Of a stretch of 4,536 nt of DNA, positions 1 through 544 are shown piece after piece (the stretch's first letter is position 1; every line of letters starts with the position of its first letter). A program made the position numbers and the translations under genes. The stretch lies in IMG/VR virus record IMGVR_UViG_2706794662_000008; one strand, given 5' to 3'. Under the pieces are notes generated by a model. The model was not told the DNA's origin, made no database searches, and saw only the letters and a list, made by a program, of their open reading frames with translations. This stretch comes from a virus (Duplodnaviria; Heunggongvirae; Uroviricota; Caudoviricetes).

Positions 1-125
1 TGAGGCAGCACCTGGCACGGCTGGGACGGAAGTCGCTGTCGTTCTCAAAATCGGTGGAGCTGCATGACAAAGTCATCGGGCATTATCTGAACATAAAACA
101 CTATCAATAAGTTGGAGTCATTACC
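1..125. repeat. Left arm of a perfect 125-bp inverted repeat; partner is 4412-4536
   Basis: Reverse complement of 1-125 matches 4412-4536 base for base when compared by hand. Identity breaks at 126 versus 4411. The arm is GC-rich in its outer ~60 bp and AT-rich in its inner ~45 bp. Confidence 0.95.
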
Positions 126-507
126 CGTTAAAACATCTGCAGATAATGACGTTGACTTGGATACAGATGGATTCAGACAACTGAGGATATCGTGCCCATC
201 CCCTTCTGCCAGCGGTGCGATTATATTGAGAAAAGCTTCTTATGAATTCGGCAAAAGTATAGGTGTATTTGATTTTGCAAACAATGCATCACCAGCGACG
301 ATGACATTTTTGATCCCAATATATAAAGATGATGATTTTGATTCAGATACTGTTGGTTTTACATTTGCGTTCAAGATGCCAAGAGGCCAGTTTTTTGTAG
401 ATGTAAAAGAAAACGGGAATATCAGAGCTGGAGTTAATGTTAATGGCGAGTCGGGAGTGACCTACGAAAATTGCAAATTGAATATGAAAGATATTAATGA
501 TGATTAA
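112..507 (+). CDS. Hypothetical protein, AT-rich small ORF (131 codons from TTG); start uncertain; possible moron or 3' fragment of a larger gene
   Basis: Open frame from 97 to the TAA at 505-507. It is much more AT-rich than the rest of the window (about one third G+C in 301-420 by hand count, against about 50-65% in sampled stretches of N). The track start is TTG at 112 inside the repeat arm, with no clear Shine-Dalgarno; the first in-frame ATG is at 301. An intrinsic terminator follows directly. The C-terminal part is Gly/Asn/Val-rich and looks beta-rich, but I recognise no family. Confidence 0.4.
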   Translation: MESLPVKTSADNDVDLDTDGFRQLRISCPSPSASGAIILRKASYEFGKSIGVFDFANNASPATMTFLIPIYKDDDFDSDTVGFTFAFKMPRGQFFVDVKENGNIRAGVNVNGESGVTYENCKLNMKDINDD

Positions 508-515
508 TATATAAG

Positions 516-539
516 CCGCCAGAAATTGGCGGTTTTTTT
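516..539 (+). terminator. Rho-independent terminator downstream of the AT-rich ORF
   Basis: Stem ccgcca (516-521) pairs with tggcgg (527-532) around a 5-nt loop gaaat, followed by a run of seven T (533-539). It lies 9 nt after the stop codon. Confidence 0.7.
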
Positions 540-544
540 ATAGT

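Follow-up and report, generated by a model that had tools for sequence, protein, structure and literature searches.

Why should an AT-rich open reading frame with no convincing start codon open inside a repeat and close at a strong terminator just ahead of the phage tail gene N? This arrangement stands at the left end of the stretch of DNA analyzed here, 4,536 nt in full and called the window below. The initial annotation read it in the light of Mu-like gene order, in which this place should belong to the 3′ end of the tape-measure gene, and offered three explanations: horizontally acquired cargo, a gene fragment fused at the repeat, or a variable C-terminal domain. We find it highly probable that the ORF contains the 3′ 126 codons of a 160-codon moron gene from a phiP27-like prophage (one with an HK97-type head and a Mu-type contractile tail), split by IS1 after codon 34 and likely a dead pseudogene. 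The features of the window are collected in Table 1.

Table 1. Features of the 4,536-nt window.
Feature	Position	Strand	Remarks
IS1, right-hand 125 bp (terminal inverted repeat and transposase 3′ end, stop 108-110)	1..125	+	continues left of window
Target site CGTTAAAAC, 9 bp	126..134	.	second copy on far side of IS1
3′ fragment of disrupted accessory gene	126..507	+	last base of codon 34, codons 35-160 (127-504), TAA 505-507
Intrinsic terminator of accessory gene (GC-rich hairpin, then seven T)	513..539	+	stem 513-535, T-run 533-539
Gene N homologue (DNA circularisation/tail protein, Mu gp43-like)	554..1945	+	Pfam DNA_circ_N 3e-36; RBS GGAG 545-548; so annotated in L001, L002 and phiP27
Baseplate hub gene (Mu gp44/P-like)	1942..3018	+	Pfam GpP-like domains; final codons altered by 1-nt deletion
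Mu gp45-like baseplate gene, 5′ part	2996..3326	+	Pfam Phage_Mu_Gp45 7.6e-27; enters N-run
N-run, 130 N	3327-3456	.	stands for 250 nt in L007 (3990-4239)
GP46-family baseplate gene	3481..3825	+	Pfam GP46 1.4e-31
Baseplate J/gp47, 5′ 198 codons	3818..4411	+	Pfam Baseplate_J, profile 2-134 of 255; cut by second IS1
Target site GGGGGCGCA of second IS1, 9 bp	4403-4411		duplicated (junctions in L007)
Second IS1, right-hand 125 bp, inverted	4412..4536	-	continues right of window; L007 5195-5962 is the full IS1

The repeat arm and the reading frame that opens in it

The two ends of the window, 125 bp each, are 100% complementary and form perfect inverted repeats. The repeat, which had gone unrecognized in the initial annotation, is IS1: more than 5000 plasmids carry IS1A/IS1B copies that match the arm at 100% identity, and the arm corresponds to the final 125 bp of the 768-bp IS1 of plasmid R100 (L004 751-875). 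Homology of the window to the intact gene stops exactly at 125/126, and 126-507 is found at 100% identity in Escherichia coli FDAARGOS_944 (L001 9001-9382), inside an intact 483-nt CDS (WP_000594909.1). The suspicion of a gene fragment fused at the repeat was thus well founded. The 131-codon ORF that had been described (TTG112 to 507) is present, but its first five codons (112-126) come from the end of IS1, apart from one base that already belongs to the gene, and the gene proper takes in only the codons from 127 on; the apparent start TTG112 reads as IS1 sequence. Recognition of the repeat as IS1 fully explains the missing start, since the ORF seems to open inside the repeat only because the true start and ribosome-binding site, along with 34 codons, lie across a 768-bp IS1. 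The fragment itself retains no start codon, ribosome-binding site or signal peptide.

The window holds 125 bp of each IS1 copy; the full elements and their target duplications are known from a near-identical 61.7-kb IMG/VR contig. At this junction the contig has a full 768-bp IS1 flanked by CGTTAAAAC (L007 15-782; 3232-3999 in L025, a longer view of the contig), and both views read ...AGTAACGTTAAAAC, IS1, CGTTAAAACATCTGC.... The order in L025 is the tape-measure end, a 67-nt spacer, GTG and 101 nt of the gene, CGTTAAAAC, the 768-bp IS1, CGTTAAAAC again and the gene remainder. This arrangement shows a simple IS1 transposition after codon 34 of the 160-codon gene, with a 9-bp target duplication, which set the GTG, the GGAG and the predicted N-terminal export signal 768 bp apart from the remainder of the gene. 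The insertion appears to be recent, since the fragment is 100% identical to intact copies.

None of 5,426 complete E. coli genomes covers the IS1/gene junction, and it is absent from the GTDB representative genomes, where a degenerate pattern scan matched uninterrupted genes only. The junctions were found in viral contigs of IMG/VR. Annotation of Shigella sonnei includes the truncated 131-aa ORF (CST24788.1), which occurs on 21 draft contigs, all but one of 2-5 kb. These data raise the question of an assembly artefact, in which the IS1 ends would be graph overlaps and the junction would exist in no real genome. The window does resemble a short-read contig, with 125 bp of repeat at both ends, and sibling contigs with the truncated ORF recur at 4,557-4,666 nt among the six listed, a range into which the window itself falls (~4,656 nt) when its 130-N run is restored to 250 nt. 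Such lengths follow from the two IS1 copies that flank the segment, which cause short-read assemblies to output it as a separate contig of ~4.6 kb with IS1 at both ends. The same two junctions, however, with the full 768-bp IS1 and the target duplications, lie together inside the 61.7-kb contig. The left junction also appears independently: a separate 4.5-kb contig (L008) ends at the complementary sequence, ...AGTAACGTTAAAAC followed by GGTGATGCTGCC, and a 37-aa S. sonnei "partial" protein consists of codons 1-34 plus V-K-T, the three duplicated codons. An artefact is extremely unlikely on this evidence.

The ORF had been called AT-rich and devoid of a usable start, and both descriptions held. 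GC content of 126-507 is 37.4% (GC3 30.7%) vs. 54.5% (GC3 ~54%) for the tail genes at 554-4411; a pattern scan found no consensus promoter in window 1-900, and inspection found no Shine-Dalgarno sequence ahead of TTG112 or ATG301. Expression of the fragment would have to come from transcription reading out of IS1, with translation starting at TTG112 or ATG301, and would yield a truncated cytoplasmic protein with residual or new activity. In favour of this, no stop interrupts the frame from 97 on, the fragment shows no decay relative to intact copies, and gene finders call the 131-aa ORF in many assemblies; yet a recent insertion accounts equally well for the undecayed state, neither a promoter nor a Shine-Dalgarno was found, and with the signal peptide gone the two conserved cysteines would lie in the reducing cytoplasm. 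We regard a still-expressed product as very unlikely. IS1 ends reportedly can contribute to hybrid promoters; one candidate was picked out by eye, TTGGAG (112-117) with GATAAT (142-147), and was rejected, the 24 nt between the two being too far. The fragment is most likely a dead, non-functional pseudogene in an IS1-riddled defective prophage, a reading that rests on its lack of both a start and an export signal.

The tail module and the second IS1

The tape-measure gene that had been expected at the left end of the window is not missing; it lies upstream of IS1, outside the window (L025 1105-3051). Within the window the baseplate genes carry damage of their own. The poly-A run at 2971-2977 has seven A in the window, in L007 and in L014 (a draft-assembly contig with the same truncated ORF), vs. 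eight in FDAARGOS_944 and phiP27 in the alignment; the A7 frameshift swaps the last codons of P and lengthens it to 358 aa, so that it overlaps the gp45-like gene. Sibling assemblies have P products of 358-362 aa, which hints at additional small indels. The N-run, a mask that does not preserve length, conceals both where the gp45-like gene ends (its 3′ end) and where the GP46-family gene begins; the true start of the latter is probably inside the run.

The second IS1 is inverted with respect to the first and lies 4.3 kb downstream of it. The full element in L007 is flanked by GGGGGCGCA, and the baseplate J/gp47 gene that it cuts is uninterrupted in FDAARGOS_944 (L001 12817-13899). The tail module is therefore inactivated independently of the accessory-gene split. 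The prophage thus has at least two IS1 insertions together with the 1-nt poly-A deletion that alters the end of P. An inverted pair of IS1 copies 4.3 kb apart could also allow inversion of the segment between them.

Inverted repeats around a segment, with an ORF that opens inside one arm, recall the S/Sv genes of Mu, and the initial annotation had considered read-through across a recombination site into a variable C-terminal domain. The ORF would then be a C-terminal cassette, joined to its partner by site-specific inversion across the perfect 125-bp repeat. The arms, however, are the ends of two IS1 copies, each with a 9-bp duplication of its own and inserted at sites unrelated to each other; the segment that they bracket holds N and baseplate genes, without fibre genes; uninterrupted copies of the gene have their own GTG start and GGAG ribosome-binding site, and no repeat; and the window contains no invertase. 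The in-frame TAA at 94-96, which the initial annotation had itself raised against read-through, is there as described. A cassette of this kind deserves practically no credence. Membership of the Mu G-segment type of invertible S/Sv cassette was rejected on the nature of the arms, the N and baseplate content and the lack of an invertase in the window.

What the IS1 reading describes has many counterparts among the IS1 pseudogenes of Shigella, which likewise show a 768-bp IS1, a 9-bp duplication and simple insertion in prophage genes, with multiple independent IS insertions in the same prophage across lineages. We noted no difference from these; the window is a typical example.

Other members of this prophage group carry insertions elsewhere. 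An IS1 variant, 90-92% identical to IS1B of R100, lies in gene N, right after the equivalent of window 584, with the accessory gene intact, in two complete genomes: S. flexneri SFBU1023 (CP182556.1; L005 5803-6570) and ECMA0423 (CP178302.1; L006 1-166). IS1-family elements have struck the same prophage independently in different lineages. FDAARGOS_944, whose accessory gene is intact, has the tail sheath gene of the same prophage split by the IS4-like ISEc60, and a frameshifted ipaH effector gene just past the tail-fibre genes (L001 3307-6107 and 18275-18575).

The slot ahead of N and the intact gene

We compared synteny upstream of N, as the initial annotation had proposed. In 11 complete E. 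coli genomes, and likewise in 27 viral loci, the gene sits after the tape-measure gene and ahead of N. Window 126-700 matches FDAARGOS_944 at 100% and the ten other complete genomes at 97.7-99%, and in all 11 the matching stretch overlaps the N gene and a CDS annotated as "hypothetical protein". In the two that were inspected, FDAARGOS_944 and STEC316, a 483-nt CDS occupies the slot (WP_000594909.1 and WP_032083313.1, respectively), with a GTG start and GGAG upstream of it. A family-alignment search placed the gene between the tape-measure gene and N in 27 of 27 IMG/VR loci, intact in 26 and with the same IS1 insertion in the 27th. A Yersinia copy (74% identity) is in the same slot ahead of N.

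Two branches can be told apart among the loci: genes of the first share 93-99% identity with that of the window, and those of the second, to which phage vB_EcoM-720R4 belongs, ~49%. N proteins of the two branches are 52% identical, and the parallel divergence of gene and N (49% vs. 52%) would also be consistent with a gene long inherited together with the tail module, in contrast to one that moves freely. The motif KMPRGQFFVDV is invariant across the branches despite overall identity of 49%, and pairwise dN/dS within branches is mostly 0.2-0.7, as calculated from few substitutions; together these values support a real protein under moderate constraint.

A strong intrinsic terminator had been reported after the ORF, and its strength was confirmed by folding: -14 kcal/mol, z = -4.4, with none of 200 shuffles as stable. 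The spacing of 14 nt given for it is correct as the distance from the end of the T-run to the N start codon (ATG 554) but not to the N ribosome-binding site (GGAG 545-548), which is 5 nt away. The 49%-identity branch has a terminator in the same place with a different hairpin sequence (-14.5 kcal/mol, z = -5.7), missed by the pattern scanner and shown by direct folding. The hairpin at 516-532 was also flagged on the minus strand, where its tail is only CTTATATATT; bidirectional action of the terminator is unlikely. As for the other end of the gene, the initial annotation had allowed for an ordinary conserved accessory gene with its own start and promoter at this position. The own start is there in many related phages, but a promoter was not found: a crude scan for the sigma-70 consensus upstream of the intact gene gave none in either branch. 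Transcription of the gene may depend wholly on the late operon. In lambdoid-regulated phages of this type, antiterminated late transcription would override a moron terminator such as this one.

The closest named phage, the Stx2e phage phiP27 (NC_003356), resembles the window in its N, P and gp45 genes, which are 96.6% identical in DNA and stand in the same order; unlike the window, it has 15 nt between the tape-measure gene and N, and neither the accessory gene nor its terminator. The gene is missing from the E. coli A8 prophage as well, with the same 15-nt gap. Composition sets the gene apart at every viral locus, with GC of 0.34-0.38 vs. 0.51-0.56 for the flanks in 27 of 27, and a terminator comes after it in every case. 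The gene is therefore one that is present in some and precisely absent from other close relatives, distinct in composition and equipped with its own terminator, and in all these respects the intact gene behaves as moron-like accessory cargo of the phiP27-like prophage. Horizontally acquired cargo, as the initial annotation had it, is borne out by the slot, the composition, the terminator and the absence from phiP27 and A8.

Distant relatives (25-31% identity) were found outside tail modules altogether, one in Pantoea sp. F_7 (L009 1-452) and one in the SRR13837185 contig (L010 2919-3413). Each occupies the maintenance and immunity region of a phage-plasmid-like contig, with ParA and a CI-like repressor close by, and the second also has IncFII RepA and MazE/PemK nearby.

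Might the intact gene instead be a true component of the tail module, such as a tape-measure or baseplate accessory or an assembly factor? Its slot is fixed in both branches, with N proteins that share only 52% identity, and no promoter of its own was found. But the protein has a predicted N-terminal export signal, atypical for virion and assembly proteins, and the strongly deviant composition is followed by a terminator. The occurrence of distant relatives elsewhere, in plasmid-maintenance regions, and the absence from the isolated phage phiP27, whose tail genes are 96.6% identical, as from the A8 prophage, argue against a structural role, which we hold to be quite improbable. Accessory cargo remains our reading of the intact gene.

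The moron concept was reportedly set out in 2000. Known examples are bor and lom of phage lambda and gp15 of HK97, whose products are targeted to the envelope. The accessory gene resembles the lambdoid and HK97-like morons as an extra gene between two conserved late genes, present or absent in close relatives, with deviant low GC and its own terminator after it; like Bor, Lom and gp15, its product is predicted to be envelope-targeted. It differs in lacking a promoter by consensus scan, in occupying one slot across quite divergent tail modules, and in having no known sequence or specific fold similarity to any characterized moron product.

The family and its predicted product

The full-length protein matches phrog_5586, annotated as of unknown function, from end to end (E = 9.7e-89, residues 1-160 vs. 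profile 1-161 of 161); the window fragment covers residues 35-160. Profile and structure searches on the product, which the initial annotation had recommended, thus succeeded in finding a family but gave no function-bearing or informative structural match. There was no informative match in Pfam (fragment and full length), NCBIfam, PADLOC, the PDB sequence profile or Rfam; Foldseek against PDB and BFVD gave nothing at E <= 0.001; and a literature search by accession or PHROG id found no paper citing the protein. The family is small, with 15 representatives among 1.84 billion proteins; a profile query of a collection of 5.8 billion sequences still gave no more than 13 clusters.

On inspection, every full-length member carries an apparent Sec-type signal peptide ending in A ahead of K. 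A putative lipobox, L-[TI]-S-C, is confined to the Shigella/E. coli/Yersinia branch, and reads L-T-S-C in the branch of the window's gene. The intact product is predicted on these signals to be exported to the cell envelope, by either a Sec or a lipoprotein route. Cysteines C57 and C150 are invariant in the family, consistent with a periplasmic disulfide. AlphaFold2 with a 15-sequence alignment, which included members at 24-43% identity, gave a model with pLDDT 83.8, in which the intact product is predicted to form an eight-stranded beta-barrel behind one helix; a run with a shallow 9-sequence alignment (pLDDT 48.8) was discarded.

Comparison of the model with PliC/MliC, Tp0751 and avidin/calycin-like barrels showed identity of 10% or less and no family that stands out, and the N-terminal helix of the phrog_5586 model falls outside those folds. 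Membership of the PliC/MliC lysozyme inhibitors was rejected: there was no family profile match and no specific structural similarity beyond the generic barrel.

We infer that the intact product is a non-structural envelope factor serving the lysogen. Several phages encode such proteins beside their tail genes: Cor of phi80, N15 and HK022 and Llp of T5 are lipoproteins that mask receptors or exclude superinfecting phage. The phrog_5586 protein would be like them in being small, exported or lipidated (as predicted) and encoded in the tail-gene region, and their way of acting is a plausible analogue; it is unlike them in having no homology (by Pfam, annotated PHROG and PADLOC) and in showing the lipobox in one branch of the family only. 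As to function, our leading guess, though a tentative one, is that the protein excludes superinfecting phage or masks receptors as Cor and Llp do. A host fitness factor like Bor or Lom comes next and is slightly less likely by the same kind of analogy, and ranked with the next guesses is a periplasmic inhibitor, for which we see a low probability. A broader proposal can be made for the family, speculative as it is: phrog_5586 may be a class of phage-borne envelope beta-barrels that guard the lysogen against superinfection, by blocking either the receptor or the passage of DNA through the periplasm, and that are kept beside the tape-measure gene in Mu-type tail modules and carried also by phage-plasmids.

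The decay seen in the window is ordinary, of a kind common in Shigella, and the family, though catalogued as phrog_5586, is uncharacterized. Once the IS1 pseudogene is recognized, there is no cause to annotate the truncated ORF as a gene or to misread it as a recombination cassette. The intact gene belongs to a rare cargo family of predicted exported beta-barrels, occupying with its terminator one slot of Mu-type tail modules and found also in phage-plasmids, and its product is a reasonable candidate for a factor that protects the lysogen or modifies the host. If the reading as lysogen defence is true, the window would show a defence gene inactivated by IS1 in S. sonnei.
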